Source: Promethearchaeota archaeon | Lineage (GTDB): Archaea > Asgardarchaeota > Lokiarchaeia > Sigyniarchaeales > SOKP01 | NCBI GenBank assembly: GCA_019058365.1 | Contig: JAHPZE010000001.1 | Span: 384,001-448,000, forward strand | Length of the DNA stretch: 64,000 bases | Direction: 5' to 3' | Shown: positions 24,651 through 51,959 of the stretch, piece after piece | Position numbering within the stretch: position 1 is the stretch's first letter | Layout: every line of letters begins with the position of its first letter | The notes under the pieces: model-generated | The model's input: only the letters and a program-made list of their open reading frames with translations | Told to the model about the DNA's origin: nothing | The model's database searches: none | Position numbers and translations under genes: made by a program

Positions 24651-24659
24651 GATTATCAC

Positions 24660-34540: not shown

Positions 34541-34645
34541 CTGATCTGTGATTAATTTCAAGTTCAATATGGTATCATTACTAATTAAATATGAAATACT
34601 AAAACTTAAATAATATTGTATACAAATTTACTATGGTAAACTAAT

Positions 34646-34930
34646 ATGTCAATTGTAAAAATTAAAAATAAGAAAGGTTTGGAACAACTTCAAGCCAAAT
34701 TAACTCTAAGATTAGGTCGAAAACCCACACAGCAAGAGACTCTTGATTATTGCCTTATTTTAGCGAATCAAAATTTTGAAGAAATTATTCAAATAGCAAT
34801 GAATCTTCCAATATTAAACCCTAAAAAAGCTCAAAAAATTATTGAAAAAAGAAACAGCCTTGGTGATATTCCCTATAATCCTAACTCGCATTTTACTTCG
34901 GAAAATGATGACGATATTTATAACTTATAA
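34646..34930 (+). CDS. Putative antitoxin of a VapBC-type module
   Basis: 94 aa, abuts the PIN gene; MSIVKI...LQAKLTLRLGRK N-term; acidic DDDIY tail. Confidence 0.65.
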   Translation: MSIVKIKNKKGLEQLQAKLTLRLGRKPTQQETLDYCLILANQNFEEIIQIAMNLPILNPKKAQKIIEKRNSLGDIPYNPNSHFTSENDDDIYNL

Positions 34931-35380
34931 TTGGTGTTTCATGTGGGTGTATTCCTAGATACTGGTTTTTATCTTGGACTTTGTCATCCAAAGGATAAAT
35001 ATGCAGAACTAAGCGAAAAGATATTAAAAGAATTAGCTATAGGGAATTATGGAGTTCTATATACATCCTATTTTATTATAAATGAGGTGACTACATTAGC
35101 TGCCATCAGATCTAAAAATAATCTCAAAGTGTTCAACCATCTGGAAAAACTATTGTGGGGAAGTGAAAAAATTGCAACTATTCTTCCTTTTGATTTAAAT
35201 TTTGAACTTGAAACATGGCAATTATTCAAGAAAGAAAATACGATTGACTTGAAAGAAAAAAAAACAATGAGTTATACAGATATCAGTTCTATTGTTCTCT
35301 GTAATCATCATCAAATCGAATATATTGTTAGTTTTGATTCTCATTTTGATGGGTTTCTTCAGAGAATCTTTCAAGTATAA
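34931..35380 (+). CDS. vapC: PIN-domain VapC toxin
   Basis: VFLDTG, INEVTT, MSYTDISS, IVSFDSHF. Confidence 0.88.
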   Translation: MVFHVGVFLDTGFYLGLCHPKDKYAELSEKILKELAIGNYGVLYTSYFIINEVTTLAAIRSKNNLKVFNHLEKLLWGSEKIATILPFDLNFELETWQLFKKENTIDLKEKKTMSYTDISSIVLCNHHQIEYIVSFDSHFDGFLQRIFQV

Positions 35381-35636
35381 GAATGTCTTTATGTGTTTTT
35401 TCAAAGAAATTTTTATGTAAATCAGACTATGAATTTACCTTTCCTTACTAATTTTTAATATTACATAAAATGTTTCGAAAATGAAGAACTATTTTATGCT
35501 AATCATAGTAATTATTCATTTTTATAACTTCGAATGAGGTTTTTTTATTTATAGATTAAAGATTGAAGAGAAATAAAGAAAATTGTATCGAAAAAATTAA
35601 ATGCTAACATCGTTATTAATCATTAAATGAAAAGTC

Positions 35637-36062
35637 TTGTTTCAGAAGTTGGTTAAAATGGAGGAAATCCTTCAATATTTAATGAAACACTGCTCTTTCC
35701 TATATAAGCCAAATCGATTTCGCTTTGTTGATTCTGGCTCATCAGAGAGTTTTGGAAATGCATTCTTGATTCTCGAACATGAGGATTTACGTTTGCAATT
35801 TGTCAGAGACCGCGGGCAAATATTCCTTGATTTTCAGCCAACAAAAAAACAAACCAAAAGCAATTGGTTTTCGATCGATATTATCAAGCAGATGGTAACA
35901 GGTAAGATAGAACCCTCAGCTGAAATGGATTCTGAGAAAGCAAAGTTCTTAAAAACCAATCTTGATAAAATCGAACAGCTTTTTTCTACTGCTAATATGG
36001 AAAGCACAATTAAGAAATTAAAAGAGTTAGAACGTGCACGTGCAAAGCGATTATTTCCATGA
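35637..36062 (+). CDS. Hypothetical protein (start possibly at MEEILQ)
   Basis: 141-aa ORF; SFLY...SFGNAFLIL...LRLQFVRDRGQIFLDF...WFSID motif pattern. Confidence 0.6.
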   Translation: MFQKLVKMEEILQYLMKHCSFLYKPNRFRFVDSGSSESFGNAFLILEHEDLRLQFVRDRGQIFLDFQPTKKQTKSNWFSIDIIKQMVTGKIEPSAEMDSEKAKFLKTNLDKIEQLFSTANMESTIKKLKELERARAKRLFP

Positions 36063-36106
36063 TTTTATCTGTTATATATAATAAATAAATCTGTCTGTTC
36101 CTTCAA

Positions 36107-37993
36107 TTAACACCATTCTTTATGGAAATCTGTTCCAAATATTCTTTTTAATGCCTTTAAGTAATCTTTATCTAACATTCTACAATAAGGCAACCAAGCA
36201 TCTTTTATTCTCAATAAAACACTACGGACTTCTTCATCTCTCTCCTTGATAACGAAAAAATGAGGAAATAAACTGAAAATATTGCATTCTAAGTATCTTT
36301 TAGCAATATCAGTATGATGATGATTCAAAATAAGATTACAAATGTCACTAAAGAACCCAATTTCAAGACCTTCCTTGAGTTCATCGTCATAATAAACCCC
36401 AAGGAATATCCCTTTTAAATAACGAAATATTTCTTCATAATCCAGATATTTAAAAACGAAATCAAAGAGATAATTTATTTGTCTTACTGTTTCTCCACCA
36501 AGGAAACTAGTTTTTCTCATTTGCGTCGTCCCTATTTGACGAAGTAAATGACTTCTATTTTCTATTAAATATTTTCTGATATCCTTAGGATTCTTCATAG
36601 ATTTTAATCTGGTAATAGTGATTTTCGGTTCTAAATCTGGTTTAGTAATATAGACATTTACGACAGGTTTTCCTTGTCTTAAGGTATACAAATCCCAGGA
36701 TTCCCACCTCTCATAGGGTTGTAACCAACCATGACTCCTCCTTAATTTAGGATCAAAGATCCTTAATCTTCTTGAAGTACTTGTTGTTTTCATAACACCC
36801 TCATCACCTATTCCTGTATAGTCATATTCTGTATAACCGCAGACTACGCTACCAGGTTGAGTTATGTAATTTTTATCTGAAATACCTAATGCTTTCAATA
36901 CAGGTCGTTCATTATCAATTTCTAAAACTATCTCTTCAAATGTGGGGGTTCTGTCAATTTGTCCTCTAATAATCGGCCAATTTTCCTCAATTTCATTAAC
37001 ATTATACTGAGTATCAGCAGCAAATAACCTATGAATACTTTCTTCGTTTGGTGGTATGATCCCATGACATATAAAAATCATATATAATGAAGCAGGGATG
37101 GTATAATCACTAAAACTTCCTAAACTTATAGACAAAAAAACCGCTTTCTCCTCATGAGGATGAACTACCCAATTATACTCGGCATTAAGCGATTTAGTTC
37201 TAAGAAAATTTTTAATATTCAATCCGTCCTCGATGATCTTTATAAATCTTCCATCGGAAGTCCCTTGTTTTTTAAATTCTAACCCATTAATTTTACATAT
37301 TTGTTTTAGTGATTGAACTAATTTATTATCAAGCTCCCATTTAACAATCTTATCTTGTCTATCCTTAGATTTTATCGTATTATACATAGACCAAATATTG
37401 GGATTATCTATTGGTATTCTTTCTAATGTTGAGTCATCGATTATTATTTTATCTTTTATCACTTTGGTTTTTGGGTCAATAAGAGTAATGAGTAAACCTA
37501 TATTCGGATAATCATAACAAATATGGCGGTTCATCGATTTGATCTCAGTTTCAGGATACTCTTTCTCGATGATTGATTGAATTTTTTGAGTAATATCCCA
37601 AGGAACTTTTTGTTTAATCCACCAATACTCAGTGAAAAATTCGCTATTTGAATATGAAGGAAAAATTTCTATAGTTAAAACAGATGATCCTAACACTTTA
37701 CTGGCAGCAGTTTTTATCTTCCCAATTACTTCGTCTTTTTTCTTTATAAAAAATTCGTAAAAAAGGGGTTGACCATTAACATCATAAATCGTCAAAGGAC
37801 TTTGATCATCCCATACAACTCTAAAACCTTCCCATATCTTAAGATTTATATGCATATGTATTAATAGACCTGTGATAGCATGCTCAAATGCAACCTCCTT
37901 ATCAACTAGGTGATTTTCTTCTTGTTCTGGAACTGGGACTATATTATCGAACAAATCTATTTTCTTTTTTTTCATATTTTCTTTTAAAGTCAT
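36107..37993 (-). CDS. Hypothetical protein resembling archaeal C39 peptidase-like proteins, catalytic motifs degenerate
   Basis: PLTIYDVNGQPLFYEF..AASKVLGS, CYDYPNIG, PTFEEIVLEIDNERP, VVCGY, IFDP. Confidence 0.5.
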   Translation of the reverse strand: MTLKENMKKKKIDLFDNIVPVPEQEENHLVDKEVAFEHAITGLLIHMHINLKIWEGFRVVWDDQSPLTIYDVNGQPLFYEFFIKKKDEVIGKIKTAASKVLGSSVLTIEIFPSYSNSEFFTEYWWIKQKVPWDITQKIQSIIEKEYPETEIKSMNRHICYDYPNIGLLITLIDPKTKVIKDKIIIDDSTLERIPIDNPNIWSMYNTIKSKDRQDKIVKWELDNKLVQSLKQICKINGLEFKKQGTSDGRFIKIIEDGLNIKNFLRTKSLNAEYNWVVHPHEEKAVFLSISLGSFSDYTIPASLYMIFICHGIIPPNEESIHRLFAADTQYNVNEIEENWPIIRGQIDRTPTFEEIVLEIDNERPVLKALGISDKNYITQPGSVVCGYTEYDYTGIGDEGVMKTTSTSRRLRIFDPKLRRSHGWLQPYERWESWDLYTLRQGKPVVNVYITKPDLEPKITITRLKSMKNPKDIRKYLIENRSHLLRQIGTTQMRKTSFLGGETVRQINYLFDFVFKYLDYEEIFRYLKGIFLGVYYDDELKEGLEIGFFSDICNLILNHHHTDIAKRYLECNIFSLFPHFFVIKERDEEVRSVLLRIKDAWLPYCRMLDKDYLKALKRIFGTDFHKEWC

Positions 37994-38018
37994 TACAAAT
38001 AATTTTTCTTACATTAAA

Positions 38019-38222
38019 CTAGTTAAACTCCTCTCGAAGAATTGTTTGATAATCAAGATCTCTTTTCTTGAACGAAATCTTTTCTCCACCGTTATAAATG
38101 TTGTTAGTAATGGCGTTTTGAAACATGGACGTAAAGGAGATAGCTATATCCTTGTGCATAGCATCAAACTCTGGATTTCTATTCTTCTTCCTCTTTATCT
38201 TATCAGCAGAATAGGGTTCCAT
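38019..38222 (-). CDS. Short hypothetical ORF or gene fragment
   Basis: 67 aa, same strand and 25 bp upstream of the 628-aa gene; no motif recognised. Confidence 0.3.
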   Translation of the reverse strand: MEPYSADKIKRKKNRNPEFDAMHKDIAISFTSMFQNAITNNIYNGGEKISFKKRDLDYQTILREEFN

Positions 38223-38816
38223 TCAATTCAGCTAAATTTATATGTATTATAAGTTCAATTGTAAAATCTTGTCTTATATTTCTATAGACCTTACCAACTT
38301 ATAAAATTATCAGCACATATATTTCTTACTTTACTTTGGTATTGTATTATGATTTATTCTTTTTCTCTATTATTTAATGATATCAATTGATCTGTCGATT
38401 ATTTTATAAATAAAAATTTATTTAAGAATAGAAACTCATCCTCCACATTTCTGATCTGATCTCATAAAGGACAAAAAAGAAATCTAAATATTAATTTAGG
38501 ATCTTAATCTAATTACGTCATTTTCACTCTAACATCTTTATATTTCTCACTTTAAATTTTCTTCGAAATCAAACTCTGAATTTTTTCCTAAAAAAAAAAG
38601 TAATGGATTTCTCTAGAGTAATTATCTCTTTGAAATTTTTATCCAAATTCTTAATTTTTCATTTATATAGCTAGCTTTTTAAAAATATCTTAAAAATTTA
38701 GTATTTTTTTGATAGAAACATTTAAATTTATAAAATCTAATGTAAATCCTTATAACGTAATTATCTTGATAAAAAACTGAAATTAAATAGAATTAAAAAC
38801 TTAGGAGTGTATTACC

Positions 38817-39383
38817 ATGGGGAAAAAAGCATTATCAATAATAGCAGTTTTAGGTTTTATTATTGGAGCATCAGGACTAGGTCTAGGAGTTTTTTCATTA
38901 ATAAATATGCAAGCAAACCAAGGATCTTCAGGAACAACTTGTGTTGTCGTCGGAATATGAGATCGGTTATATAAAAATAAGAATTATGCCCCTTATGATA
39001 CAGATCAACAATATCTCATTAGAGTAGATGGGATAGAAGTAAATAATAGTGATTATTTTTTCTTAAATCGAACCGATACTCGATTTCATTTAATTAAAAG
39101 TGGTTGGTATCGAGTTAATCTGTTACTTACACTGGTTAGTATTTCTGGAACTGCAGATGTCTATTTCAGGGCTTTTAAGGAAGGATCAACTGCAGTAGCA
39201 TTTGCTTATACATATAATGCTACCACTGATGGAAACTTTCTTACTATGGAAGGGCAATTCTATATTTACAGTGATGGTTCTAATTATTACGATTTCTATG
39301 TTTCATCAGGACTCATGACCAGTGATGTCGCGCCAAATAACGCTTTTAACCAGTTAGGGATTGAATACGTTGGAGATTATTAA
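38817..39383 (+). pseudogene. N-terminally anchored beta-sandwich (C1q/TNF-like) protein, 188 codons, interrupted by one TGA at codon 48
   Basis: Not in the ORF track. RBS AGGAGTG; MGKKALSIIAVLGFIIGASGLGLG...VVVGI*DRLY...FHLIKSGWYRVNL...NQLGIEYVGDY; TGA at 38958-38960. Confidence 0.7.
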
Positions 39384-39459
39384 ATTTGTTGTTCTCAATA
39401 AATTGAAAGAAATTTATATCAAATCTTTATAAAATTAAATTTTTTTTTATCAGTTATTT

Positions 39460-39822
39460 TTAATGTAAATTGTCTTTATAAGGAGATTCCTCAAGAATTT
39501 TATCAAGCTCCTCCTTTTCCCATTGTGCGAATTTCGAATCGAGTTGTTCCATTAATTTTATTAGTTTGGCAAATAATTGCCTCCTATTATCTTCATTGGG
39601 CTTACGATGTTCTAATTCATAATCATTCGCCATTATGAACACAATAGATTTGAATATCCAATATAATAGTTTTTCAATATCTTTTGTCTGTCTTCGTTCA
39701 AATTCTTCTCCTCTCTCGCTAACTACATAATTATACCCATTCTTATCAATTTCAATATGGGGAGAACCAAACCCATCACTAGAAGCACGAAAGGTAAGTA
39801 AATGACTTGGAGCGTTTATCTC
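39460..39822 (-). pseudogene. Imm63-like immunity protein, 5'-truncated (no canonical start in front of the homologous region)
   Basis: Frame is open upstream of the track ORF: EINAPSHLLTFRASSDGFGSPHIEIDKNGYNYVVSERGEEFERRQTKDIEKLLYWIF...YELEHR...DNRRQLF. Confidence 0.65.
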
Positions 39823-40105
39823 AACCAGGTTTGATAATTTCTTAAGAAATATGGAAATTGAAACAGTTCTAATTTCTGGAGTTGTGACGAATTTTTGTGT
39901 TCATTCAACTACTCGAGAAGCATATGATTATGAATTTCAAACGATTATTGTGGAAAATTGTTGTGCAGCCTGGTCTGAAGATATCCATTTATCAATCCTA
40001 AAATCTTTTGGATTAATTTATGGTTGTATATTACCCTATGAAAAAGTTATAAAAAAAATCTCAAGATCAATGAAAAAAGCAAAAAAAGAATTAGTGACTC
40101 ATTAA
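39806..40105 (+). pseudogene. Isochorismatase/cysteine hydrolase C-terminal fragment
   Basis: LGAFISTRFDNFLRNMEIETVLISGVVTNFCVHSTTREAYD; N-terminal half (D-x-Q-N motif) absent. Confidence 0.75.
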
Positions 40106-40306
40106 ACTTATAAGTCCGGTGGCTAGCTTACTTTCAAACTGCTCCCACAATTTCCATTTGGTAAGAGTATTTAGAACGGTAAAGAGAGCTTTAAAATTAA
40201 AAAATTAAAAATTTTTTAAAAACATTATAATTTAAAATACTACTACTTAAAACTATAAGTTGAAATTTAAAATGCAAATTAGAAAAAATACTTAAGAGTT
40301 ACTATT

Positions 40307-40483
40307 ATGAAAAAAAATAAAGGTAAAAAACGATATAAAACTGATGAATGGAATGAGATGAGCAGAGATCGCGAGGAAGACGAAATAGAAGAAGAAGACA
40401 AGGACTGGAATAAAAAAGATGATGAAGATGAGGAAATGGGCGAAAAGGGAGATGAATTCCATGAATCAGATTATGACACATAA
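40307..40483 (+). CDS. 58-aa protein with basic N-terminus and highly acidic body
   Basis: Below the track cutoff: MKKNKGKKRYKTDEWNEMSRDREEDEIEEEDKDWNKKDDEDEEMGEKGDEFHESDYDT; purine-rich island in AT-rich flanks. Confidence 0.6.
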   Translation: MKKNKGKKRYKTDEWNEMSRDREEDEIEEEDKDWNKKDDEDEEMGEKGDEFHESDYDT

Positions 40484-40770
40484 TATCCTTACAATATTAC
40501 TATGGTAGTAAAAAATATATCCCACACATAAAATCTCTTATTATTCTTACTGTTTGATAGCTGGTGTGTAAACATTTCTTAATTTTAACAGCAATTTTTT
40601 GTAAAACAATCTTTACCTTTTATTTAATAGTTTTTTCATCGTTTTCAACCGATATATTTACCATTTTATACATACGCATAGAGATGGATGAATAATACAA
40701 ACATATATCAAAGTTAATATATAAAAGAGATGATATTTTTTAAAACAGTAAATATAAATGAATAATTATT

Positions 40771-40850
40771 TTAAGTTGACCTTAAAGGATCTAGTTCTTT
40801 TATTTGGTTAATGAATTCTGCAATACCTTCAGCAAATCGTTTTCCTTCAG
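40771..40850 (-). pseudogene. mvhD 3'-end remnant (closest to the 24216 copy)
   Basis: Translates EGKRFAEGIAEFINQIKELDPLRST* versus EGKRFAEVITEFTHQIKELGPLRS*. Confidence 0.8.
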
Positions 40851-40879
40851 TTCTTATTAAGATAAAAAAATTTAATATA

Positions 40880-41581
40880 TCAATTTTTTTCAATTTCAAT
40901 TTCAATATCACTAAGTAGATAGTCAAGTTGTTTCGATTTTTTATTGATATTTAACACAGTATCAAGATATACTACATCTTCGTTTCCTAAAAGCAAGTGA
41001 ATTGAACCAGATCTTAATAGAAAAAACTCGAAAATATCAGGAATTTCTTTTTTAATACGTAGACTTTTTGTAGGATATCTCACAGCCGAAATGAATATTC
41101 CCTTTTTATGGATTACTTCATTTCTTTCCAATTTCCAATAATCAAACCTAGTTGCTATCCAAGCTATTAAGAAAATAAAAGCTAGAATGATAACCGTTGA
41201 CAAATAAAATTGATAACTCATTATAATAGTCACCTCGAATGACAATATTTGTGAGATTATTGCATTTGGATGGAAGATAAGAGTAAAAATCATTATTAAG
41301 ATAATAGCAGCTAAGAGCAATATAAAGAATTTAGTTGATGAGGTGTCGAAAGCAATAATAAATAAATTAGCGAAAAAAACTGTAATCCAAATTGCTCCAA
41401 GTATCGGTTCATCCATTCCTACAAAGTATTGTATTAGAAATAATGTTAAAGACGTAAAGAAGAGTGGATAAAAGAAAATAACTTTAGAATAACTCCTCAA
41501 AAATATTTTCTCTTCTCTTTTTATATCTTTTTCAATCTGATCTTCTGTGGGTAATTTAGATCTATCACTCATATTAACCAT
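40880..41581 (-). CDS. Hypothetical membrane protein (4 TM plus PH-like C-terminus)
   Basis: Hydrophobic helices, then DYWKLERNEVIHKKG...EIPDIFEFFLLRSGSI. Confidence 0.65.
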   Translation of the reverse strand: MVNMSDRSKLPTEDQIEKDIKREEKIFLRSYSKVIFFYPLFFTSLTLFLIQYFVGMDEPILGAIWITVFFANLFIIAFDTSSTKFFILLLAAIILIMIFTLIFHPNAIISQILSFEVTIIMSYQFYLSTVIILAFIFLIAWIATRFDYWKLERNEVIHKKGIFISAVRYPTKSLRIKKEIPDIFEFFLLRSGSIHLLLGNEDVVYLDTVLNINKKSKQLDYLLSDIEIEIEKN

Positions 41582-41775
41582 TTTTTTCTATTAATTAGAT
41601 AAAATTTATTTGTTTTGATTTAAATTTGAAAGTTAAATATGTGAAATACTCATATTGTCTTAATAAATATTATTAATTCAAATTATAAAAATTTCAAGAG
41701 TATAATGAGATCGCTATTAGAATAAGGCATTTTAGCATTTTTTGAGAAAATTTCAAAGCTAATAAGAAAAAGAGG

Positions 41776-41904
41776 TATAATTTTTTAAATCATTAAAAAA
41801 CAAACAGATTAATATGTAATATTGCGTGCAACGGACCAAGTTTTTTAATTTCATTAGTAAATTCTGTAATAACTTACGCAAATCGCTTCTCTTCAGATGC
41901 ACTT
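41776..41904 (-). pseudogene. mvhD 3'-end remnant plus trailer (closest to the 43157 copy)
   Basis: Translates SASEEKRFA*VITEFTNEIKKLGPLHA versus SASEGKRFAEVITEFTNEIKKLGPLQV; shares agttttttaatttcattagtaaattc exactly. Confidence 0.85.
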
Positions 41905-42009
41905 TACAGAAGATTTATTAATTTCTCATATGTGATCATGAAAAACCACAATTTTATACCAATTGATTTTATAATATGATTTTAATTCAATTTTTATTTT
42001 TGATTAATA

Positions 42010-42212
42010 TCAAAGGAATTTTAATGCATCATTCCCAATTTCTAACAACTTTATAATGACTTAGCGGTCAAGATGGGGGCACTCTTCTTGGATCTCGTTG
42101 ATGTATAATTCATACCAACTAGTTCATAAATTAAAGCAACAAGAGTTCTCGTGCCTTTTATAATAGGCTTCCCCCCAAGGATCTCTGGGTTTAATTCAAT
42201 TAGATCCGACAT
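42010..42212 (-). pseudogene. DUF433 antitoxin-like pseudogene (frameshift plus stop)
   Basis: MSDLIELNPEILGGKPIIKGTRTLVALIYELVGMNYT, then in the shifted frame INEIQEECPHLDR*VIIKLLE. Confidence 0.8.
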
Positions 42213-42319
42213 CTTTTAAGATATAATAAAATGATTCTGAGATAAATATATTATTAATAAATAAAAATCCAATGATATATTATAAAAGGTGAATATCTTT
42301 AAATACAAAGGGTAATTAT

Positions 42320-42580
42320 ATGGGTATGGGTGATTACATGGGAAAAGTTGAAATTGATGAACGTGGTCGTTTGACTTTACCTTCCAAAATACGAGAAAAA
42401 TTACTTATACAACCAGGTGATAAATTAACCATTAAGATTAATCCAGACAATTCAATTAATATTAAGAAAAGCCCCTCTAAAAAAGAAATATTCGATGAGC
42501 TTGTAGGATGTATAACAACTCCATTAGAAGAGAAACTAACACCAGAGTTGATTAAAAGCATATGGACCAAAAACCAATAA
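42320..42580 (+). CDS. AbrB/MazE-type antitoxin (VapB)
   Basis: VEIDERGRLTLPSKIREKLLIQPGDKL. Confidence 0.88.
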   Translation: MGMGDYMGKVEIDERGRLTLPSKIREKLLIQPGDKLTIKINPDNSINIKKSPSKKEIFDELVGCITTPLEEKLTPELIKSIWTKNQ

Positions 42581-42993
42581 TTTTTGTAGATTCAAACTAT
42601 TGGATCTATTTATTCGATAAAACAACAGATGAGCACGAATCAGTTAAAAAACATTTTAATAATCTCTATGATGAAGCAGTTTTAGCAATAAATACAGTTG
42701 TGATGATGGAAGTAATGCATTATTTAGTCAAAAGACTTGGATCTGAAATAGCTAAAGAGAAATGGGATTTGTTTTCATCAATAAATTTTATAGTTGGAAA
42801 TTTAGAATTTGAAGATTTGGATACTATTTTTTCAATATTGTGCAAGTACTCACATACGGGAATAGGAGGGAGAGATGCCACGATCCTATCATTTCTAGAA
42901 ATAAATCAAATCCAAAAGATTTGTACTCATGATAATGCATTTAAAAAAATTCCAAATCTAGAAATAATCGACCCCATTACACAAAAAAATTAA
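42562..42993 (+). CDS. vapC: PIN-domain VapC toxin
   Basis: IFVDSNYWI, VMMEVMH, GGRDATI, ICTHDNAF; overlaps the antitoxin. Confidence 0.9.
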   Translation: MDQKPIIFVDSNYWIYLFDKTTDEHESVKKHFNNLYDEAVLAINTVVMMEVMHYLVKRLGSEIAKEKWDLFSSINFIVGNLEFEDLDTIFSILCKYSHTGIGGRDATILSFLEINQIQKICTHDNAFKKIPNLEIIDPITQKN

Positions 42994-43156
42994 TGATACA
43001 ATCAAAATTTATAAAATTAGATTAATTTCTTTGGAAATTAGACTCTAAATTTACAAATTCTACAACTATTTTCAGAAACTTGAAGCTAAAATATTTTAAT
43101 GTTAATAAGAAAATGAAAATGAGATATGATTTTTTAATAATTGAAAAATAAATATT

Positions 43157-43588
43157 TTAAATAACTTGCAGTGGTCCTAGTTTTTTAATTTCATTAGTAA
43201 ATTCAGTGATGACTTCAGCAAATCGCTTCCCTTCAGATGCACTTACCCATTCAAGTCTAAATCTTTTTTCAAGATTGAATATTTTTAATATTTCCTTAAA
43301 ATGTTCAAATCTATCCCTAGCAAACTCATTTCCTTTTAAGTAATGACAGTCACCGATATGACATCCTGTCACAATGACTCCATCAATACCATCTTTAAAA
43401 GCCTCCAAAATAAAAGCGGGATCTACTCTACCAGAGCACATCACTCTTACTATCCGAATAGTAGCAGGGTACTGAAAACGAGATACGCCAGCTAAATCTG
43501 CCCCAGCATAACTACACCAATTACAACAAAAACATAATATATTTGGATGGAAATCTTTTTTATTTACTTTCTTTTTTGACTTAGACAT
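43157..43588 (-). CDS. mvhD: MvhD [2Fe-2S] subunit (Cys form)
   Basis: FCCNWCSYAGAD, MCSGRVD, GCHIGDCHY, WVSASEG. Confidence 0.93.
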   Translation of the reverse strand: MSKSKKKVNKKDFHPNILCFCCNWCSYAGADLAGVSRFQYPATIRIVRVMCSGRVDPAFILEAFKDGIDGVIVTGCHIGDCHYLKGNEFARDRFEHFKEILKIFNLEKRFRLEWVSASEGKRFAEVITEFTNEIKKLGPLQVI

Positions 43589-43606
43589 AAGTTAATACCT
43601 CATAAT

Positions 43607-46600
43607 TTAAGTTTGGACAAGAAGTGCAGAAATCATAGCGTGAATTTGCTCAAAACCAAAATGTTTAATAACTATTGTTGAATTAGGACATTGTGCGCCA
43701 CATGTACCACATCCCTTACAAAGCGCAGGATTTATATGAGATTTTTTATTAGTCATTGTAAAATCTTCGAACGTTCTTTCTTTTTCTATTAATTCTATAG
43801 CATTAAATTGACAGACTTCTACACAGCTTCCACAGCCAATGCAATTTTCTTCTATTACAACCGCTACAAGTCCAGATGTTACAAGCTTTTCAGCACTTAA
43901 AATTTTAACTGCTTGAGCAGCAGCTCCATTGGATTGTGCAATTGATTCTCGAAGATCTTTAGGTGAATGTGCACTTCCACATAAATATATACCATCTGTA
44001 GCAAAATCAATTGGTCTCAATTTAACATGTGCTTCCAAAAAGAATTTGTCCTCATTAAGTGGCACTTTTAACATTTTTGCTAGCTCTTCATTTTCTTTTA
44101 TAGGTGCTACGAGACCAGTACTTAGTACGACTAAATCAGGATTTATTTCAAGGGCTCCTAAATCTGGATTATTGATTTTAATTTTTAATCTTTTATTTTT
44201 AATAGTTAATTCTGGAGGTTTAGATTCATCAAATCTAAGAAATATAACCTTTTTATCTCGTGCTAAGTTATAATATTTTTCTTTAAAACCATATGTTCGG
44301 ATATCACGATATAGAATTACTATTTCTAAATTAGGATTGATTTCTTTTGCTTTTAGCGCATTTTTAATAGCTTCTGAACAACAGATTCTACTACAATAAG
44401 GGTGATCTTCATTTCTAGATCCAACGCATTGAATCATAGCTATTGATTTCAATCCTTTTATTTTATCCGTAGTAAAAAGATCTTTTTCAAATTCGGTTTG
44501 GGATATAATTCTTTGATCTTTCCCGAAACCATATTCTTTTGGTTGATATTCTTTTGCCCCTGTGGCTACAATAATTATTCCATGGTCTAGATCAACACTT
44601 TTACTATTATTTCCATAACTTATGTTTGTGGAAAAATTCCCTATATATCCTGAAATTGAATTAATTTGAGCATTTTTAAATACGTGAATGAATTGATTAT
44701 TTTCAACTTTTTTAATTAGGTTTCCAAGATACTCCTGAATATCATCATTTTCAAGGGTTTGATAAATATTTTTGGCAAATCCACCTAGAGAATCTTCCTT
44801 TTCAATTAAAAAAACTTCATAACCTTGAGAAGCCAGATTTAATGCTGCTGACATTCCAGATACACCCCCTCCTATGATGAGACCCTTACTTATTACAGTA
44901 ATTTCTTGTTCCTGCAACGGGATTAATTGGCTAGCCTTTGCTATTGACATACGCAATAAATCTTTTGATTTTGCTGTAGCTTTTTCAGGTTCATGCATAT
45001 GAACCCATGAACATTGATCTCGAATATTTACCATTTCAAAAAGATATTTATTCAAACCAGCTTCCCTAATTGTTGCTTGAAATAATGGTTCATGTGTTCT
45101 TGGAGTACATGAGGCAACAATAACTCTATTAAGTTGATTTTTTTCAATTTTTTCTTTAATATTTGTTTGGGTATCTGCTGAACAAGTATACAAATTATGT
45201 TCAGCATAAACAACATTGGGCAATGTTTTAACGTATTCAACTACATTAGGAACATCAACAACTCCACCAATATTTATCCCGCAATGGCATATAAATACCC
45301 CTATTCGCGGGTGTTGACCACTTACATCTAATTCTTCGGGAAGTTCTTTCTTAGAGACTAATTTATTTCTTGCTTCTGATAGAAGAACATTTACATATCC
45401 AGCAGCAGCACTAGCTTCAATAACGGTTTCTGGAATATCTTTTGGTGTTGCGAAAGACCCACAAACATAAATTCCAGGTCTTGAAGTCTCTACTGGGTTA
45501 AAGGTTCCAGTTTTACAAAACCCATATTCATTTAACTGGATATTTAATTTCTGTGCTAATTCTTTTGCTTTTTGATTAGGTTGCATTCCAACGGAAAGGA
45601 CGACTAGATTAAAAATTTCTTTAACAATTTTTCCATTTCCTGTTTCATAATAAACCTTTAAATCTTTAGAGTCCGGAATTTCTTTAATAGAAGAAATTCT
45701 GCGTCTGATATATCTTATTCCATACTCATTCTTCGCTCGTTCAATATATTTATCAAAATCTTTACCATATGCTCTGATATCCATTGTAAAAATTGTTGGT
45801 TCTATAATATTCATGTGCTCTTTTGCTATTACTGCTTCTTTTGTTGTATACATGCAACACACAGAAGAGCAGTAATCAATTCTATGCTTTCTATCTCTTG
45901 AACCTATACAATGTAAAAAAGCAATTTTTTTGGGGATAATCCCATCAGAAGGGCGAATTATTAAACCAGAATGTGGTCCACTAGCACTGAGTATACGTTC
46001 AAATTCAATACTAGTAATCACATTTAAATGCTTACCGTAACCCAATTCCGTTAAAGGAGTAGGATCATATTCATCAAATCCAATTGCTAATACTACAGCT
46101 CCTACATTAAGGTTAATTAAACTATCTTGAAGTTCATAATTTATAGCTTTTGCTTTACATATTCCTTTACAAATACCACAACCTATACATTTTTGTTTAT
46201 TAATTGAGAAAACTAATGGAACTGCTTGAGGAAATTTCACAGAAATTGCTGCTTTGTTAGAAAGCTTTTCATTAAAAAAATCAATAGCCTCTATAGGACA
46301 TTGTTGAGCACACAAACCGCACCCTGTACATTTATTCTGATCCAAACGAAGGGTTGTTTGAGTTAAATGAACATTAAAATTTCCTGGAACACCTTCAATT
46401 TTTTCAATTGAGGAATTAATTAAAATATCTATATTTTCATGTCGACCAGTTTGTACTAATTTTGGGGCAAGAATACATATTGCACAGTCATTAGTTGGAA
46501 ATGTTTTATCCAATTGAGACATAGTTCCTCCAATACTGGTTGTAGATTCTGCTAGATATACTTTATAGCCTGAATCTGCTAAATCTATAGAAGTTTGAAT

Positions 46601-46648
46601 ACCAGCAATTCCACCACCAATAACTAGAACAGCTCCGACTTTCTCCAT
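43607..46648 (-). CDS. hdrA: Large HdrA-like flavoprotein (two FAD-binding motifs)
   Basis: GGGIAG and GGGVSG, DKTFPTNDCAIC, CSSVCC, CHCG, ASCTPRTHE, CSRICC, ferredoxin motifs. Confidence 0.93.
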   Translation of the reverse strand: MEKVGAVLVIGGGIAGIQTSIDLADSGYKVYLAESTTSIGGTMSQLDKTFPTNDCAICILAPKLVQTGRHENIDILINSSIEKIEGVPGNFNVHLTQTTLRLDQNKCTGCGLCAQQCPIEAIDFFNEKLSNKAAISVKFPQAVPLVFSINKQKCIGCGICKGICKAKAINYELQDSLINLNVGAVVLAIGFDEYDPTPLTELGYGKHLNVITSIEFERILSASGPHSGLIIRPSDGIIPKKIAFLHCIGSRDRKHRIDYCSSVCCMYTTKEAVIAKEHMNIIEPTIFTMDIRAYGKDFDKYIERAKNEYGIRYIRRRISSIKEIPDSKDLKVYYETGNGKIVKEIFNLVVLSVGMQPNQKAKELAQKLNIQLNEYGFCKTGTFNPVETSRPGIYVCGSFATPKDIPETVIEASAAAGYVNVLLSEARNKLVSKKELPEELDVSGQHPRIGVFICHCGINIGGVVDVPNVVEYVKTLPNVVYAEHNLYTCSADTQTNIKEKIEKNQLNRVIVASCTPRTHEPLFQATIREAGLNKYLFEMVNIRDQCSWVHMHEPEKATAKSKDLLRMSIAKASQLIPLQEQEITVISKGLIIGGGVSGMSAALNLASQGYEVFLIEKEDSLGGFAKNIYQTLENDDIQEYLGNLIKKVENNQFIHVFKNAQINSISGYIGNFSTNISYGNNSKSVDLDHGIIIVATGAKEYQPKEYGFGKDQRIISQTEFEKDLFTTDKIKGLKSIAMIQCVGSRNEDHPYCSRICCSEAIKNALKAKEINPNLEIVILYRDIRTYGFKEKYYNLARDKKVIFLRFDESKPPELTIKNKRLKIKINNPDLGALEINPDLVVLSTGLVAPIKENEELAKMLKVPLNEDKFFLEAHVKLRPIDFATDGIYLCGSAHSPKDLRESIAQSNGAAAQAVKILSAEKLVTSGLVAVVIEENCIGCGSCVEVCQFNAIELIEKERTFEDFTMTNKKSHINPALCKGCGTCGAQCPNSTIVIKHFGFEQIHAMISALLVQT

Positions 46649-47925
46649 TACTTCTCCTCAATATTATAATTAGGTTCTATTAATGTGATCATATTCACTA
46701 AAAATTCTGAAAAATCTATAATTTCTATAGAAGAGAAATCATCATAGTCTTTTTTTAGACAGTTCAAATGCATTCGACATTTTGGACAAGCTGTAATCAT
46801 TTTAGTTCCAACAGCTTTAGCTTCTAACAAACGCTTATATCGTAAAGCTTTTGATCGTTCATTACAATTCATCCAAGAATTTACTCCACAACAATAAGAA
46901 TTTTCTTTATTATGCGCCATTTCTTTAAAATCATAACCAATAGCCTTCAAATATTTGAAGATTTCTCGGACATTCTCAACTATTTTATTATCCTTAGGTA
47001 AAAATCTACTTAATCTACAAGGATCATGAAAAGTAAATTGAATTAGTTCATTAGATTCATTGGGGTTTTTAAATTGAACTTTTCCTTGCTTCCATTTATC
47101 ATAGATATATTCAATTATATGTTTAACTTCAAATTTTTCATTAAAATCTTCAAATAATTTTGGATAATCAATTTTAAATGTTCTATAACATTCAGCACAT
47201 GCTGTTACTATATGTGTAATTCCTGCTTTATCAAACAGTTTAATATTTTTTTTCGCTAATTCAATAAAGCTTTCGAATTTTGCTTGGCCCCAATATAAAT
47301 CATGACCACAGCATACCTCATCTTTCAGAATAACTACTGGATCATTTTCTAATTGACAAATAATCTTAAGTGTGCTTTCTGCTATAGATATTGAATCTTT
47401 GAATTCATAGTTAAAGAAAGGTAAACATCCTACATAATATAAAATATTTCCTCTATCTGAAATTTTACACCCTTTTGGAATCCAATCTAAAGGTCTCTCA
47501 ATTTTAAAATTATCTTGACTCATCATTTCTGACATCAAAGGATAAATACCTTTATGAGCAATAGAACGATCAGGATTTTGAATATCTTTTAACCGCATTT
47601 TATATCTAGCAATTCTGACAATGTCAGCGAAATTTATATCTTTAGGACAATGTTGTAGGCAACTATTACACATTAAACAATCCCATAACACCCTACTATT
47701 GATTATCTCATCTTCAAAACCTTCTAATATTGTTTGAATAATTCTACTAGGTGTAAATTTTTGTACTTTACTTACTTGGCATACACCCGAGCAACGGGCA
47801 CATTGATAACATTTTTTTAGTAAGTTAGATAAATCTGGCTCGAATATTTTTTTCAAATATTCATAATTGTCATCAGAATCTGGTTCTAATTTATCGGACT
47901 TTTTACTTTCAGTTATGGTAGTCAC
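46648..47925 (-). CDS. HdrD/HdrC-B-like Fe-S oxidoreductase
   Basis: Close paralogue of 27767-29047; two [4Fe-4S] motifs and two CCG domains. Confidence 0.9.
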   Translation of the reverse strand: MTTITESKKSDKLEPDSDDNYEYLKKIFEPDLSNLLKKCYQCARCSGVCQVSKVQKFTPSRIIQTILEGFEDEIINSRVLWDCLMCNSCLQHCPKDINFADIVRIARYKMRLKDIQNPDRSIAHKGIYPLMSEMMSQDNFKIERPLDWIPKGCKISDRGNILYYVGCLPFFNYEFKDSISIAESTLKIICQLENDPVVILKDEVCCGHDLYWGQAKFESFIELAKKNIKLFDKAGITHIVTACAECYRTFKIDYPKLFEDFNEKFEVKHIIEYIYDKWKQGKVQFKNPNESNELIQFTFHDPCRLSRFLPKDNKIVENVREIFKYLKAIGYDFKEMAHNKENSYCCGVNSWMNCNERSKALRYKRLLEAKAVGTKMITACPKCRMHLNCLKKDYDDFSSIEIIDFSEFLVNMITLIEPNYNIEEK

Positions 47926-49429
47926 TCCTCTCTTTTTCTTCTTTTAGTTCAATTGGTTTACAATTTTTTCTCTTAGTACCAGCAATTCTTTCTAATAAGG
48001 ATTGCCCCGGTTTAACATCCTCTAAGCTTTTTGATTCTATTAATCCTGCATTAATTGCCTCTTTATAAAGGGTTTCACCCTTTTTATTTCGTGTAATCAC
48101 TGTAGACCACCCACTAGGGGACCCTATTGATCCTACAGAAATATCAGCATAATCGGAGGTCAAGTCTTCGCAATAGTGACAATTATGGCGAGCATAGGAT
48201 TTGACTTCATTTAAGGGTACGTTTAAATCTTCACCCGAATCTAAATAAATGATAAATTTCCCACCACTTATATCCATTTTCGTAACTTTATTAAAATCTG
48301 ATTGGAACTTTTCATTGATTAAGTTAAGAACACCCTCATAAGGAAAAGATTCCATACAAAAAAGCCCTATTCGATATTTAATGTTTGTAAAAAATGGTAG
48401 TCCACTCGGAAATAAAGTACCTTTTTCTAAAGCATTCATCATACAGGGAACGCCTACAACTGCAATGTTTTCATACTTTTTTGTTTCATCTATAATACTT
48501 AAAGTCGAGGCATTAGCGTATTTAGTGCCACTTGTTTTGTAAAGATCTTTAATGTCTTCTATTATCACTGGCTCTGGTTTCCATAACTCCTTCGAATGTT
48601 GTACTGCTACAATCACATCAACTAATTTATTTTTAAGTAAGTATTCAAGCAAAGAGGTAACAATCCCACCATCTTGTCGTACTTTTTTAATATCATTCTT
48701 AGTGGTGCTCGCAGAATAGGTATTTATATAACCATTAATTTGTTCTGAGAACTTTAAGGATTTATCAAGCTTATTTATATTTTTGCCCGCTTGTTCGATT
48801 GAAAATGATCTCGGGCAAACTGAATAACATAAACCGCATTTTATGCAAATTTTATCATCTATCTCCAAAGTATCTGCTGTGGCTGTGATGGCATTCACGG
48901 GACAAATTGATGAACACCAACCACATTGACAGCATACTTCAGAATCAAACACAATAGAAACTGGTTCAAAAAAATGTTCAATAAAATCATCGGGGAGATC
49001 TTTAACTTGATAGCGATAAAAATATTCTTTTTCTTCGACTTCTTTTTCTTCTCCCTTTATTTTCTTGATAACAGTCTTAGTTTTTATATCGATAAGTTCT
49101 TCAATATATCCCTGTTCTTTAAGATAAATTACATCACGAATTACATTTTCTACAGGAAAATCTTTTACAATTTTTGCAATTTCCTCTAAAAATAATGGTT
49201 CTTTACCTTTTAATAATTCTAACACTAATTTACGCTCTGTTTCTGCATCAATCAGGGCATCTAGTATTTCATAAAATTCTTTTTCAGAATACTTTCCAGT
49301 TTTTAAAATTTCATCTTTTGCTTCGAAAAAAGCGCGAATTTGAAAATTTTCTACGGCCTTATAGGTAGCATCCATTAAATTTTTTGGAGATATTCCATTG
49401 AAATTTACGTTATTTGAAATTTGAACCAT
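47909..49429 (-). CDS. FrhB/FpoF-like F420-binding subunit with N-terminal winged-helix-like and ferredoxin domains
   Basis: CCQCGWCSSICP, CIKCGLCYSVCP; QDGGIVTSLL, SGTKY, VGVPC, IGLFCME, CHYCED, ADISVG, GWSTVITR. Confidence 0.88.
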   Translation of the reverse strand: MVQISNNVNFNGISPKNLMDATYKAVENFQIRAFFEAKDEILKTGKYSEKEFYEILDALIDAETERKLVLELLKGKEPLFLEEIAKIVKDFPVENVIRDVIYLKEQGYIEELIDIKTKTVIKKIKGEEKEVEEKEYFYRYQVKDLPDDFIEHFFEPVSIVFDSEVCCQCGWCSSICPVNAITATADTLEIDDKICIKCGLCYSVCPRSFSIEQAGKNINKLDKSLKFSEQINGYINTYSASTTKNDIKKVRQDGGIVTSLLEYLLKNKLVDVIVAVQHSKELWKPEPVIIEDIKDLYKTSGTKYANASTLSIIDETKKYENIAVVGVPCMMNALEKGTLFPSGLPFFTNIKYRIGLFCMESFPYEGVLNLINEKFQSDFNKVTKMDISGGKFIIYLDSGEDLNVPLNEVKSYARHNCHYCEDLTSDYADISVGSIGSPSGWSTVITRNKKGETLYKEAINAGLIESKSLEDVKPGQSLLERIAGTKRKNCKPIELKEEKERSDYHN

Positions 49430-49494
49430 ATTTCTATCCTTTTGGTTTACAATTTATTAAAAAATTTTAAATTTTAATTGAATACTATTTAAAA

Positions 49495-49562
49495 ACCCCT
49501 TCCCTTGCAAGGTGAGTTCTCTTATAACTAATATTTTTTTATAAGAGTCATTCTACAGGGGT
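49495..49562 (-). ncRNA. Candidate SECIS-like stem-loop overlapping the mvhD(Sec) stop codon
   Basis: mRNA: ACCCCU-GUAGA-AUGA-CUCUUAUAA-[AAAAAUAUUAG]-UUAUAAGAG-AACUCA-CCUUGCAAGG-GA-AGGGGU-UUUU. Perfect 9-bp upper helix right after AUGA, A-rich apical loop, 6-bp lower helix. The 3' GA of the core is out of canonical register. Confidence 0.55.
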
Positions 49563-50009
49563 AGTTATAACTTGTTTTGTTTCAATTTTTGACTCTTCTT
49601 CTACTAAGTTAAGTGGATTTGGTCCAGCTTTGCTTACTTTTTTATAAGCGTCCTCGACAGATTCGACAAATTTCCCAGCATCTCCTCCACTTACCCAATA
49701 CATGTTTATTCTCTGATTTCCGAAACCTCTTGATTCTAAGATTCTGTTTGCTAATTCTACATGTCTTTCGGCTGTGAAATTACCATTTTTAAATTGACAT
49801 TCATTGGGTCGTCAGCCTACAATCATGACACCATCAGCTCCCGAGCGAATACTGTAGAGAATATGCTTAACATCAACTCTACCAGTACATTTTACTTTGA
49901 TTATTTTTACTGCAGGTGTATACTTCAATCGAGAAACTCCCGCTAAATCAGCAGCACTATAACCTCATTTTAAACATGCAAAAATAATCATTTTATACCT
50001 ATTTTTCAT
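49548..50009 (-). CDS. mvhD: MvhD/VhuD selenoprotein, 153 aa, Sec at codons 15 and 66
   Basis: Absent from the track. MKNRYKMIIFACLK-U-GYSAADLAGVSRLKY...VKCTGRVD...GADGVMIVG-U-RPNECQF...YWVSGGDAGKF. TGA at 49965-49967 and 49812-49814 align to CNWC and GCH cysteines; GGAGGTG RBS. Confidence 0.92.
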
Positions 50010-50015
50010 ACCTGT

Positions 50016-51959
50016 TTAAACACCTCCGAGAAGACCGTCAATTTCAGCAAATAATTGATGATCTCGATAATATCTGATATCAATTGCTTGAGTAGGACAA
50101 CATGTAGCACAAATACCGCATCCGTCACAATTTGTCTCATCAATAAATGCACCGATATCCTTCTCAATTCTAATGGCGTTTTTGGGACACTCTTTTTCGC
50201 ATCGTCCACATGAAATACAGAATTCGCTGTTCACTTCAGCAGTAATTAGTTCTATATCGATTTGTCCTGGTGCTGTTAACTCAGCTGCTTTGCTAGCCGC
50301 TGCCCTCGCTTGAGAAACGGAATAAGAAATATTTTTTGGTCCTTGAGCAAATCCAGCTATAAAAATTCCTTTTGATTTCGTTTCTTGCGGCATGAGTCCG
50401 AAATGGGATTCTGTGAGGAACCCGTATGTATTAGTATCAAGGTTTAGTACTTGTACAATCTGATTAGTACCTTTTGAAGGGAGTGCTGCTGAGGATAATA
50501 CGACTAAATCTGCATCAATTATTACGATCTTATCTGTTAGTGTTGAATAGACGCGAACCTTCACATTTTTAGTTTCAGGATCTTCAGAGATTTCCCCTAC
50601 TTTTCCGCGAATCATTTTAATTCCTACATCTTTAGCTCGTTCATAGTACTCTTCAAATCCTTTTTCGGGAGTTCTTATATCAATATAACAGATTGTAATA
50701 TTCGCATCGGGAAATTCTTCGAGCAATAACCTTCCGTTTTTTAGAGCGAGCATGCAACACACACCACTACAATAAGTTCGTTCATTTTCTCGACTTCCTA
50801 CGCATTGTATAAATACAATTTCTTTTAACTTCTTATTATCAGAAATTCGATGAACATGACCTTCAAGTGGACCATTTGGAGCAAGTATTCGTTCTAACTG
50901 AACTTGAGTTATGACATTCTCAAATTCTCCGTATCCATATTCACCAAAAGGTTCGTAGATATCCCATCCAGTTGCTATAATGATTGTACCAACTTCAATA
51001 TCAACTTCTGTAGGCACTTGACTGAAATCAATGGCATCTAATTCACAGGCATCTACACAGGAAAAACACTCAATACACGCATCCCTGTCGATATCATATA
51101 GAAACGGTACTGCTTGACCAAATGGAATATCAATTGCTTTTCGCGCTCCCAAATGTTCATCAAAATAATTGCTCACATATAAAGGACAAACCTCACTGCA
51201 TGCACCACATCCATTACAGTCGTCCGTCGTATATCGCGGTTTCCTTTCAATAGTTACTTTATAGTTCCCGACATATCCTTCTACTTTTTTTACTTCACTA
51301 TAGGTGACTAATTCAATATTCTCATTTCTATTAACTTCTAACATTTTGGGACCACAAATTCATATAGCACAATCGTCTGTAGGAAAGGTTCTGTCTAACT
51401 GAGACATTCTCCCTCCTATTGTAGTTTTTTGATCAACTAAATATACCTTGATGCCTTGATTCGCAAGATCGAGAGCCGCATTCATACCACAAATCCCAGC
51501 TCCAATAACTAATGAGGCTTTTGTAACTGGAACTGTCTTAATTGGCACTGGCTCTAATCGTTTTACTCTTTCAATTCCACTTTTCACTAAGATTTTTGCC
51601 TTCTCTGTAGCTTCTTCTTTACTATCTGTGCACCATGAACACTGTTCACGAACATTTACCATTTGAAAGTAGTATGGATTTAGGGCAGTTTTAGCTATTG
51701 TCCCCCGATAAATAACCTCATGTGTACGTGGGGTTCAAGCAGATGCTACAATTCGGTCTAGATTTTTTTCTTTAATATCTTTAATAATTTCATTTTGAGC
51801 ATTATCGGTGCATAGAAAAGCATTTTTTTTAGCAATTACGACATCATCAAAAGTCTTACTTACGTATTCTACAAGCTCATCGCAATCTACTTTAGTCCTA
51901 ATATTTACTCCTCATTGACAAGCATAGTATCCAATCCGATGATTTTCATTATTATTCAT
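50016..51959 (-). CDS. hdrA: HdrA selenoprotein, 647 aa, Sec at codons 16, 75 and 200
   Basis: One frame joins the two track ORFs and an untracked 5' part: RIGYYACQ-U-GVNI (51912-51914), VASA-U-TPRTHE (51735-51737), FPTDDCAI-U-ICGPKM (51360-51362). Canonical HdrA length and domain order. Confidence 0.92.

Follow-up and report, generated by a model that had tools for sequence, protein, structure and literature searches.

A conserved Lokiarchaeial Hdr-type gene cluster with two types of HdrA and a predicted link to F420

Promethearchaeota archaeon GCA_019058365.1 is a Loki-type Asgard archaeon with a genome of 4.74 Mb, estimated to be 100% complete. Here we describe a cluster of six genes for a heterodisulfide reductase (Hdr)-type system, located on the minus strand at positions 43157-51959 of the window, a stretch of 64,000 nucleotides (nt) that corresponds to C16:384001-448000 of the genome, C16 being the contig. 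The original prediction, made from the DNA letters, described six co-directional, closely packed genes; all six were found at the coordinates given there, and their identities were confirmed with Pfam and NCBIfam. In reading direction they encode a type I HdrA of 647 amino acids (aa) with in-frame TGA at codons 16, 75 and 200 (Sec-HdrA, 51959..50016), an MvhD of 153 aa with TGA at codons 15 and 66 (Sec-MvhD, 50009..49548; FlpD, E 1.2e-41), an FrhB-like protein of 506 aa (FdFrhB, 49429..47909; FrhB_FdhB_C, 5e-42, and FrhB_FdhB_N, 1e-21), an HdrD-like protein of 425 aa (47925..46648; CCG, 3e-18), a large fused HdrA of 1013 aa (46648..43607; HdrA2 model, 4e-293) and a second MvhD of 143 aa in which the ligands are all Cys (Cys-MvhD, 43588..43157; FlpD, E 2e-54). 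The first two genes are separated by 6 nt, and a gap of 118 nt between mvhD and frhB holds a selenocysteine insertion sequence (SECIS). Further on, frhB and hdrD overlap by 17 nt, hdrD and the large hdrA overlap by 1 nt, and 18 nt separate the large hdrA from Cys-mvhD.

As predicted, the window is free of [NiFe] hydrogenase genes: large-subunit matches were obtained only at C16:92850 and C16:339722-340915, and both of these loci adjoin Hdr/MvhD genes elsewhere on the contig. Separate hdrB and hdrC genes are likewise absent from the window, in which the HdrB model matched only weakly, on the two HdrD-like genes. No molybdopterin enzyme was detected among the Pfam-scanned window open reading frames (ORFs) of at least 100 aa, although no search aimed at the FdhA family was made; the remaining ORFs are too short for FdhA. 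The genome as a whole contains 12 FrhB-domain matches, 15 MvhD matches (four with two TGA), at least eight type I HdrA genes, about eight type II or split HdrA genes and many HdrB/HdrD-like genes. It also contains 16 AOR genes and three EtfAB pairs, all of which lie outside the window, the ETF genes on contigs C46 and C24.

The conservation of the cluster was surveyed by a scan of one genome per species, which retrieved 79 loci, all from Promethearchaeota/Lokiarchaeial metagenome-assembled genomes, a few of them carrying other submitter-given Asgard names. Of these loci 56 are orthologous; upstream counts refer to loci with enough upstream DNA and downstream counts to loci with at least 6.5 kb. 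The synteny proved almost invariant: HdrA and MvhD genes lie upstream of FdFrhB in 50/50 loci, while the HdrD-like protein, the double HdrA and MvhD follow downstream in 40/41, and within the same genus the gene order was identical in all 11 loci examined. A second FrhB of about 370 aa stands between the 506-aa FrhB and hdrD in 36 of the 41 loci, and therefore the cluster of the window is a six-gene derivative of a seven-gene cluster, from which the second FrhB has been lost. The nearest FrhB2-like gene of this genome is found alone on contig C29, at about 62% identity. In paralogous loci, the trio of Sec-HdrA, Sec-MvhD and FdFrhB is present in 16/18 cases and the HdrD module in 0/10. Such a lone trio, set among unrelated genes (e.g. 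for seryl-tRNA synthetase and ribosomal proteins), occurs in this genome (C9) and in other families.

The two HdrA proteins differ in architecture. Sec-HdrA is assigned from its domain layout to the canonical type I: the HdrA2 model extends over residues 1-639 (E 9e-231), and its recognisable parts are the N-terminal Fe-S domain, the TrxR/FAD core and two ferredoxin domains, one inserted and one C-terminal. Its K407 and E356 are the equivalents of Lys409 and Glu356, the CxxC pair reads C197-x-x-U200, and U16 and U75 are among the ligands of the N-domain. The HA4-type CxGSR...CSxxCC motif is likewise retained in HdrA. The equivalog cut-offs, tailored to methanogen proteins of 760-780 aa with MvhD included, are not reached by Sec-HdrA. 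The 1013-aa protein is assigned in the same way to type II, a fused double HdrA. Its module 1 (1-440) comprises a TrxR core, an inserted ferredoxin domain and Cys55/Cys58, without N-domain or C-terminal ferredoxin domain; its module 2 (441-1013) comprises an N-terminal Fe-S domain, a TrxR core lacking both insert and CxxC, and a C-terminal ferredoxin domain. Neither module has lost the Lys/Glu pair that stabilises FAD (K270/E217 in module 1, K762/E721 in module 2). The expectation of two distinct HdrA types in one non-methanogenic archaeon was thus borne out, with a type I of 647 aa and a type II of 1013 aa in a genome in which McrA was not found. Both MvhD proteins carry the Cys/Sec ligand set of FlpD [2Fe-2S] adaptors; they are 35% identical, and U15 and U66 of Sec-MvhD align with C25 and C76 of Cys-MvhD. 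The other two large HdrAs of the window share the type II layout.

The five in-frame TGA codons (U16, U75 and U200 in Sec-HdrA, U15 and U66 in Sec-MvhD) are retained throughout the orthologous loci, all three HdrA codons in 50/50 and both MvhD codons in 53/53, and at the same positions paralogues have TGT/TGC or TGA. One lokiSECIS element (49491..49561, minus strand) is common to Sec-hdrA and Sec-mvhD. The UGA stop codon of mvhD sits within the AUGA of this element (49551-49548), which continues into a perfect stem of 9 bp (49547-49539 / 49527-49519) closed by an A-rich loop of 11 nt, a 3' core that is the AA variant of GA, a GC-rich lower helix and a U-run. It thus shows all the features of a lokiSECIS, namely the AUGA core, stem, loop, 3' core and a place after the second gene. 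The element is kept across 22 aligned orthologous loci, with compensatory stem changes in four of them (L036, L062, L064 and L088). A search of Rfam gave no match at the gathering thresholds and only chance-level matches in the region, among which there was no lokiSECIS family. Because of the geometry of the SECIS, the retention of TGA across orthologues and the TGT/TGC codons in paralogues, the reading of these TGA codons as selenocysteine (Sec) can be considered well supported. A Sec pair with a single SECIS is already known biology. Lokiarchaeial HdrA-VhuD pairs with one common SECIS of the same geometry were reported by Mariotti et al. 2016 (PMC4989117), and the AA variant is on record for Lokiarchaeial hdrA/frhD genes (PMC11227280). 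The pair described here resembles those: only a few nt separate its multi-Sec HdrA from a VhuD/MvhD with two Sec, and one AUGA_AA SECIS lies downstream; the FrhB, HdrD-like, double HdrA and second MvhD genes that come next are not described in the searched passages of these two papers.

FdFrhB is a three-part fusion, made up of a helical and winged-helix-like region (1-155), a 2x[4Fe-4S] ferredoxin domain (~156-230) and an FrhB-type FAD/[4Fe-4S] domain (~231-495). The 12 cluster cysteines do not vary even in homologues of only 32% identity, and in the FrhB domain C329, C358, C417 and C420 and the QDGG/GTKY motifs are invariant. The FrhB domain matches the solved FrhB 3zfs_C with 204 bits, compared with 72 bits for ElpB (8rvu_E) and 27.6 bits for HCAR. 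It exceeds the cut-off of the NCBIfam FrhB subfamily (NF006807, 277 vs 269) and is under that of the equivalog TIGR03289 (246 vs 331.5). The combined ferredoxin and FrhB layout is the same as in the F420-reductase subunits 8rja_E and 8riu_B of the Ethanoperedens CODH/Fwd; such modules serve as F420 reductases on CODH and Fwd (PMC11493965). A check for F420 biosynthesis genes, proposed along with the original prediction, found CofG (with a CofH-like neighbour), CofD and CofE over cut-off, and the F420-dependent Mtd is also encoded in the genome. Taken with the 204 bits and the subfamily cut-off, these genes uphold the proposed F420 link as a prediction. For the N-terminal domain, an AlphaFold2 model (pLDDT 85) consists of helices and a winged helix with a long hairpin. 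Foldseek with this model against the PDB retrieved nothing at E <= 0.001, only weak winged-helix regulators, and an Atlas feature search (0.83) pointed to winged-helix clusters, which we take as a lead only. The extension was detected in 58 of the family's 68 genomes and in three further Asgard families; the query used did not find it in seven sampled sister-family genomes or in most other families. Complex prediction for FdFrhB with Cys-MvhD, both given as alignments, scored 0.00 and speaks neither for nor against binding.

Related fusions were observed in other genomes. Some relatives encode a protein of 623-639 aa (L028:7950-9818 of G002:C2; L082-L084) that combines an MvhD-like domain, the extension, ferredoxin and FrhB. 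At 27 bits its MvhD-like domain is over the FlpD cut-off of Pfam, but all five cluster cysteines are lost; this fusion places the FrhB unit beside an MvhD fold. A paralogue of about 915-929 aa, encoded in several relatives (e.g. L112:5694-8471, G016:C1), carries the winged-helix extension, ferredoxin and FrhB together with a GltD/SudA-like domain (Fer4_20 + Pyr_redox_2), and adjoins a glutamate dehydrogenase gene in L112; it might be an F420-linked enzyme of the NAD(P)H or glutamate-synthase type. Since the extension-ferredoxin-FrhB unit is fused to MvhD-like or GltD-like domains in these relatives, it looks like a portable F420 module that is joined to various flavoproteins. A third ferredoxin-FrhB protein of 495 aa, with a C-terminal rather than an N-terminal extension, is encoded just past the end of the window (L032:3784-5271, C16:451784-453271), on its own beside a gene for a Gtr1/RagA-like small GTPase, and is kept about 10 kb from the cluster in many relatives.

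The HdrD-like protein is a fusion of HdrC and HdrB with two CX2CX2CX3C cubane motifs (C39-49 and C83-93). Both CCG motifs are complete, with the 10/10 Cys expected for two noncubane [4Fe-4S] clusters: C167, CC205/206 and C243xxC246 in the first, C303, CC345/346 and C380xxC383 in the second. The alignment of its 425 aa with mycobacterial EtfD (9ojn_A), which also has a membrane heme-b domain, is confined to the soluble part of EtfD. The Hdr-type CC occurs in both CCG motifs where EtfD has the T-C of its linear [3Fe-4S] motif, and Glu245 stands opposite His583, the non-catalytic ligand of EtfD. An identity as EtfD was rejected on account of C205-C206 and Glu245 at these aligned positions.

We lean, by a modest degree, towards reading the six genes as a soluble Hdr-type system of two adjacent modules that is coupled to F420, works without hydrogenase and performs flavin-based electron bifurcation or, in reverse, confurcation, with a disulfide as acceptor. 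Module 1 would consist of the type I Sec-HdrA, Sec-MvhD and FdFrhB, and module 2 of the HdrD-like protein, the type II double HdrA and Cys-MvhD, to which most relatives add the FrhB of about 370 aa. For the electron path, the guide is homology to four solved complexes: Mvh-Hdr, Fdh-Hdr, Elp-Hdr and class II benzoyl-CoA reductase (BCRII). A hydride would pass from F420H2 to the FAD of the FrhB domain, and electrons would travel via the FrhB cluster and the ferredoxin domain within FdFrhB to the ferredoxin domain at the C terminus of HdrA, then through the [2Fe-2S] cluster of MvhD to the bifurcating FAD. From there, the low-potential electron would exit by the inserted ferredoxin domain to ferredoxin, and the high-potential electron by the cluster of the TrxR domain to the HdrD-like protein, whose two noncubane clusters would reduce a disulfide. 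The winged-helix N-terminal domain of FdFrhB may dock this protein beside MvhD, in place of an FdhA/ElpA scaffold. Such a system could connect ferredoxin and a thiol pool with the F420 pool (Mtd of the tetrahydromethanopterin (H4MPT) Wood-Ljungdahl pathway), and electrons could flow either way. The proposal of one complex of six subunits found no support, and the trio also occurs alone. A stronger form of the proposal, in which the type I Sec-HdrA and the type II HdrA act in series within one supercomplex, with two coupled bifurcations and a single HdrD-type sink, seems to us quite unlikely. Were it true, F420H2 (-340 mV) could drive ferredoxin reduction in a non-methanogenic Asgard archaeon via some thiol/disulfide couple.

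Several observations weigh against a coupled two-module system. The window lacks the second FrhB that is usual in relatives, the occurrence of module 1 alone elsewhere means that the two modules need not act together, and the 118-nt gap between mvhD and frhB holds a U-run, so there may be two transcripts. On the acceptor side, the HdrD-like protein is under every curated NCBIfam Hdr cut-off, the best solved relative of its CCG region is EtfD (9ojn_A, 79 bits), and solved HdrB gave no match to it at E 1e-3. McrA and ComA, the latter one gene of coenzyme M (CoM) synthesis, had no match in the genome estimated to be 100% complete. An identity as CoM-S-S-CoB reductase is not supported, in view of these missing genes and of the curated Hdr cut-offs, and because McrA and ComA were not found, the disulfide substrate is probably not CoM-S-S-CoB. 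The lone trios (16/18 paralogous loci, against 0/10 for the HdrD module) and the second FrhB directly ahead of hdrD in 36/41 relatives favour two independent enzymes that happen to adjoin, the trio being a reduced-ferredoxin:F420 oxidoreductase without a third substrate and the HdrD module a bifurcating reductase that uses the other FrhB. This role has been proposed for the Korarchaeial hdrA-mvhD-frhB trio, and likewise for Archaeoglobus (PMC10667645). We nevertheless regard two separate enzymes as unlikely: the near-invariant adjacency of the modules, with order and strand preserved in 40 of 41 orthologous loci, and the overlap of frhB with hdrD in the window favour coupling, the bigger gap falls within the trio itself, and a plain ferredoxin:F420 oxidoreductase would have no need for an HdrA with a Lys/Glu pair and CxxC(U).

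The likeness of the CCG region to EtfD also raises the question of a wiring similar to BamD or EtfD, in which the HdrD-like protein would trade electrons with ETF or another protein partner instead of a small disulfide, and electrons from acyl-CoA oxidation and reduced ferredoxin would be confurcated onto F420. BamD of BCRII hands electrons to ETF (bioRxiv 10.64898/2026.04.10.717634), three EtfAB pairs are encoded in the genome, and the double HdrA is apparently colinear with BamE, judged by published residue numbers. Little weight can be given to this wiring, however, as the CC pairs and Glu245 depart from the T-C and His583 of EtfD, the distal cluster, mostly disrupted in BamD homologues, is intact in the HdrD-like protein, no ETF, acyl-CoA dehydrogenase or AOR gene is present in the window, the ETF genes being on C46 and C24, and the neighbouring enoyl-CoA hydratase was not found in the flanks fetched for relatives. 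At the donor side, the FrhB-like domain might function without F420, with ferredoxin (as in the HCAR branch) or another hydride carrier. The FrhB family does have non-F420 members, Pfam controls match in Synechococcus and Bacteroides, HCAR is a weak match, and the equivalog TIGR03289 stays under its cut-off. With 204 bits to F420-reducing FrhB against 27.6 bits to HCAR, a passed subfamily cut-off, and both F420 biosynthesis genes and the F420-dependent Mtd in the genome, we hold this to be very unlikely. A Sec pair and a Cys pair in a single locus could finally suggest selenium-dependent back-up isoenzymes; Methanococcus reportedly switches between such isoforms (PMC11097638). This explanation was rejected and retains hardly any credence, given that the HdrA architectures differ (type I of 647 aa vs fused type II of 1013 aa), the MvhDs are merely 35% identical and both pairs occur together in at least 40 species.

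The six genes are the front of a ten-gene Hdr array, which is split in this genome by an island. A second Hdr cluster (24216..32279, minus strand) encodes a type II HdrA of 1026 aa, an HdrD-like protein of 426 aa, a type II HdrA of 1035 aa and an MvhD of 147 aa. The HdrAs of 1026 and 1035 aa share 73% identity with one another and 48% with the 1013-aa HdrA, and the trio at 29047..24216 (HdrD-like, HdrA and MvhD) is the orthologue of the trio following the FrhB genes in most other species. Between Cys-mvhD and the next double HdrA lies the island of 11 kb (32280..43156), found at this place in this genome only, with a Cdc6-like gene (33002-34258), a PIN/VapC gene (42562-42993) and unassigned genes for proteins of 628 and 233 aa. 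None of its genes could be matched in 99 related loci. The array is unbroken in the closest species, running from HdrD1 through HdrA-A and MvhD1 to HdrA-C and onward, and in L034, L014 and L021 the next HdrA begins about 0.5 kb past mvhD.

Upstream of Sec-hdrA, at a distance of about 470 nt and on the same strand, is a gene of the SDR/epimerase family (325 aa, 52430-53407), which about 40 related loci share at this position; farther upstream come genes for PadR, DUF998 and HEAT-repeat proteins that are kept in closer species. The suggested link to CoA-ester or lipid oxidation was not supported by the comparison of neighbourhoods: the flanks fetched for relatives gave no match to ECH, sulfatase or PALP and a single one to ADH. 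A beta-oxidation context was therefore rejected as a conserved feature. Elsewhere in the genome, AOR-family W/Mo enzymes are encoded near HdrD-like genes and a set of Sec-HdrA, Sec-MvhD and a 379-aa FrhB (C21:98000-116000, L030), with similar placements at C9:22-37 kb and C46:62-64 kb. These AOR loci look closer to the AOR and Hdr logic of BCRII than the focal cluster does.

Lokiarchaeial energy metabolism bears on models of eukaryogenesis that involve hydrogen or electron transfer to a partner. Genomes of this kind are rich in Hdr genes, yet McrA and ComA were not found in the present one, and the cluster offers a defined, strongly conserved candidate for F420-ferredoxin-thiol wiring without hydrogenase. 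What the window adds is the six-gene form with its second FrhB lost, the position of this form at the head of a ten-gene array with a mobile island in between, and an HdrD-like protein with a cluster pattern of catalytic type although its nearest relative by sequence is EtfD.

The original prediction allowed that an identical architecture might already have been characterised. Comparable ones exist in Elp-Hdr, which is characterised, and in the type II HdrA clusters and the Korarchaeial trio, which are described; none is identical. A literature search for Asgard archaea or Lokiarchaeia with FrhB, HdrA and MvhD, outside of which most subscription papers lay, found no paper describing the cluster. 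The Korarchaeial hdrA-mvhD-frhB trio, proposed from genomics as a ferredoxin:F420 oxidoreductase after FqoF in Archaeoglobus (PMC10667645), is the same three-gene unit, in a host that shares the H4MPT Wood-Ljungdahl pathway with its need for F420H2. It is without the HdrD or type II HdrA module and without selenocysteine, and no winged-helix/ferredoxin extension has been reported for it.

A likeness to BamDEF had been noted for the HdrD-like protein, the large HdrA and MvhD. In BCRII of Geobacter metallireducens, of which the structure is available (bioRxiv 10.64898/2026.04.10.717634), BamDEF comprise an HdrD-like protein, a fused HdrA of about 1000 aa and an MvhD-like adaptor, and go together with the tungsten AOR BamBC and with BamGHI. 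The likeness stands for the trio architecture and for the 1013-aa HdrA, which on published residue numbers only is apparently colinear with BamE (Cys55/58 vs 59/62, Lys270 vs 280, 762 vs 768), and fails in other details. The distal cluster is degraded in BamD, whereas the HdrD-like protein keeps both CCG motifs; BamE has Gln768 at the second flavin, where the 1013-aa HdrA keeps Lys762/Glu; and BamF is more than 100 aa longer and contains Sec, compared with 143 aa and Cys in the MvhD of the cluster. In BCRII a winged helix serves as a docking element; here a winged helix is found on the FrhB protein. No BamB-type AOR is encoded in the window (the 16 AOR genes lie elsewhere in the genome), and a BamB-coupled, dearomatising reading was rejected for this locus on that account.

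Type II HdrA clusters of anaerobic methanotrophic archaea (ANME) and methylotrophic methanogens contain FdhB and sometimes type I HdrA and HdrD (PMC12054007; PMC9012536); from genomics, F420H2 was proposed as a mid-potential carrier with two bifurcation events. What they have in common with the present cluster is MvhD, a protein of the FdhB/FrhB kind and a double HdrA in which neither Lys/Glu pair is lost, but they include a non-catalytic molybdopterin protein and HdrBC, neither of which is found here. In the fused HdrA of Chadwick et al., the N-domain comes first and Cys197 is in the C-terminal half, while the order is reversed here, as in BamE. The host here is an Asgard archaeon, and its type I HdrA and the associated MvhD are selenoproteins.

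Also among the closest known systems is Elp-Hdr, (ElpABC-HdrABC)2 of Methanothermobacter marburgensis, which was purified, assayed and solved (PMC12350162, PDB 8RVU and related entries). In this F420H2-dependent Hdr, homologues of FdhB/FrhB and of MvhD take the place of the hydrogenase, and it proves that an Hdr can be fed by F420H2 in this way. The present cluster would likewise encode a hydrogenase-free Hdr system fed by F420H2. An identity with Elp-Hdr was rejected, as no FdhA/ElpA-like or HdrB/HdrC gene is among the scanned ORFs of the window. Where Elp-Hdr has an ElpA/FdhA-like scaffold, the cluster has an FrhB protein with its own ferredoxin and winged-helix domains, and its F420 domain is nearer to FrhB (204 bits) than to ElpB (72 bits). 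A fused HdrD-like protein stands in place of HdrB and HdrC, and the cluster further includes an additional HdrA, of type II, a second MvhD and selenocysteine, in a host without detected McrA and ComA. All parts of the cluster and its principle are thus of known kinds, established in methanogens (Elp-Hdr) and in BCRII. The cluster is conserved and coherent, and it is set apart by the lack of an FdhA/ElpA scaffold, a winged-helix-ferredoxin FrhB, HdrD in place of HdrBC, HdrA of types I and II each with its own MvhD, selenocysteine and a non-methanogenic host.

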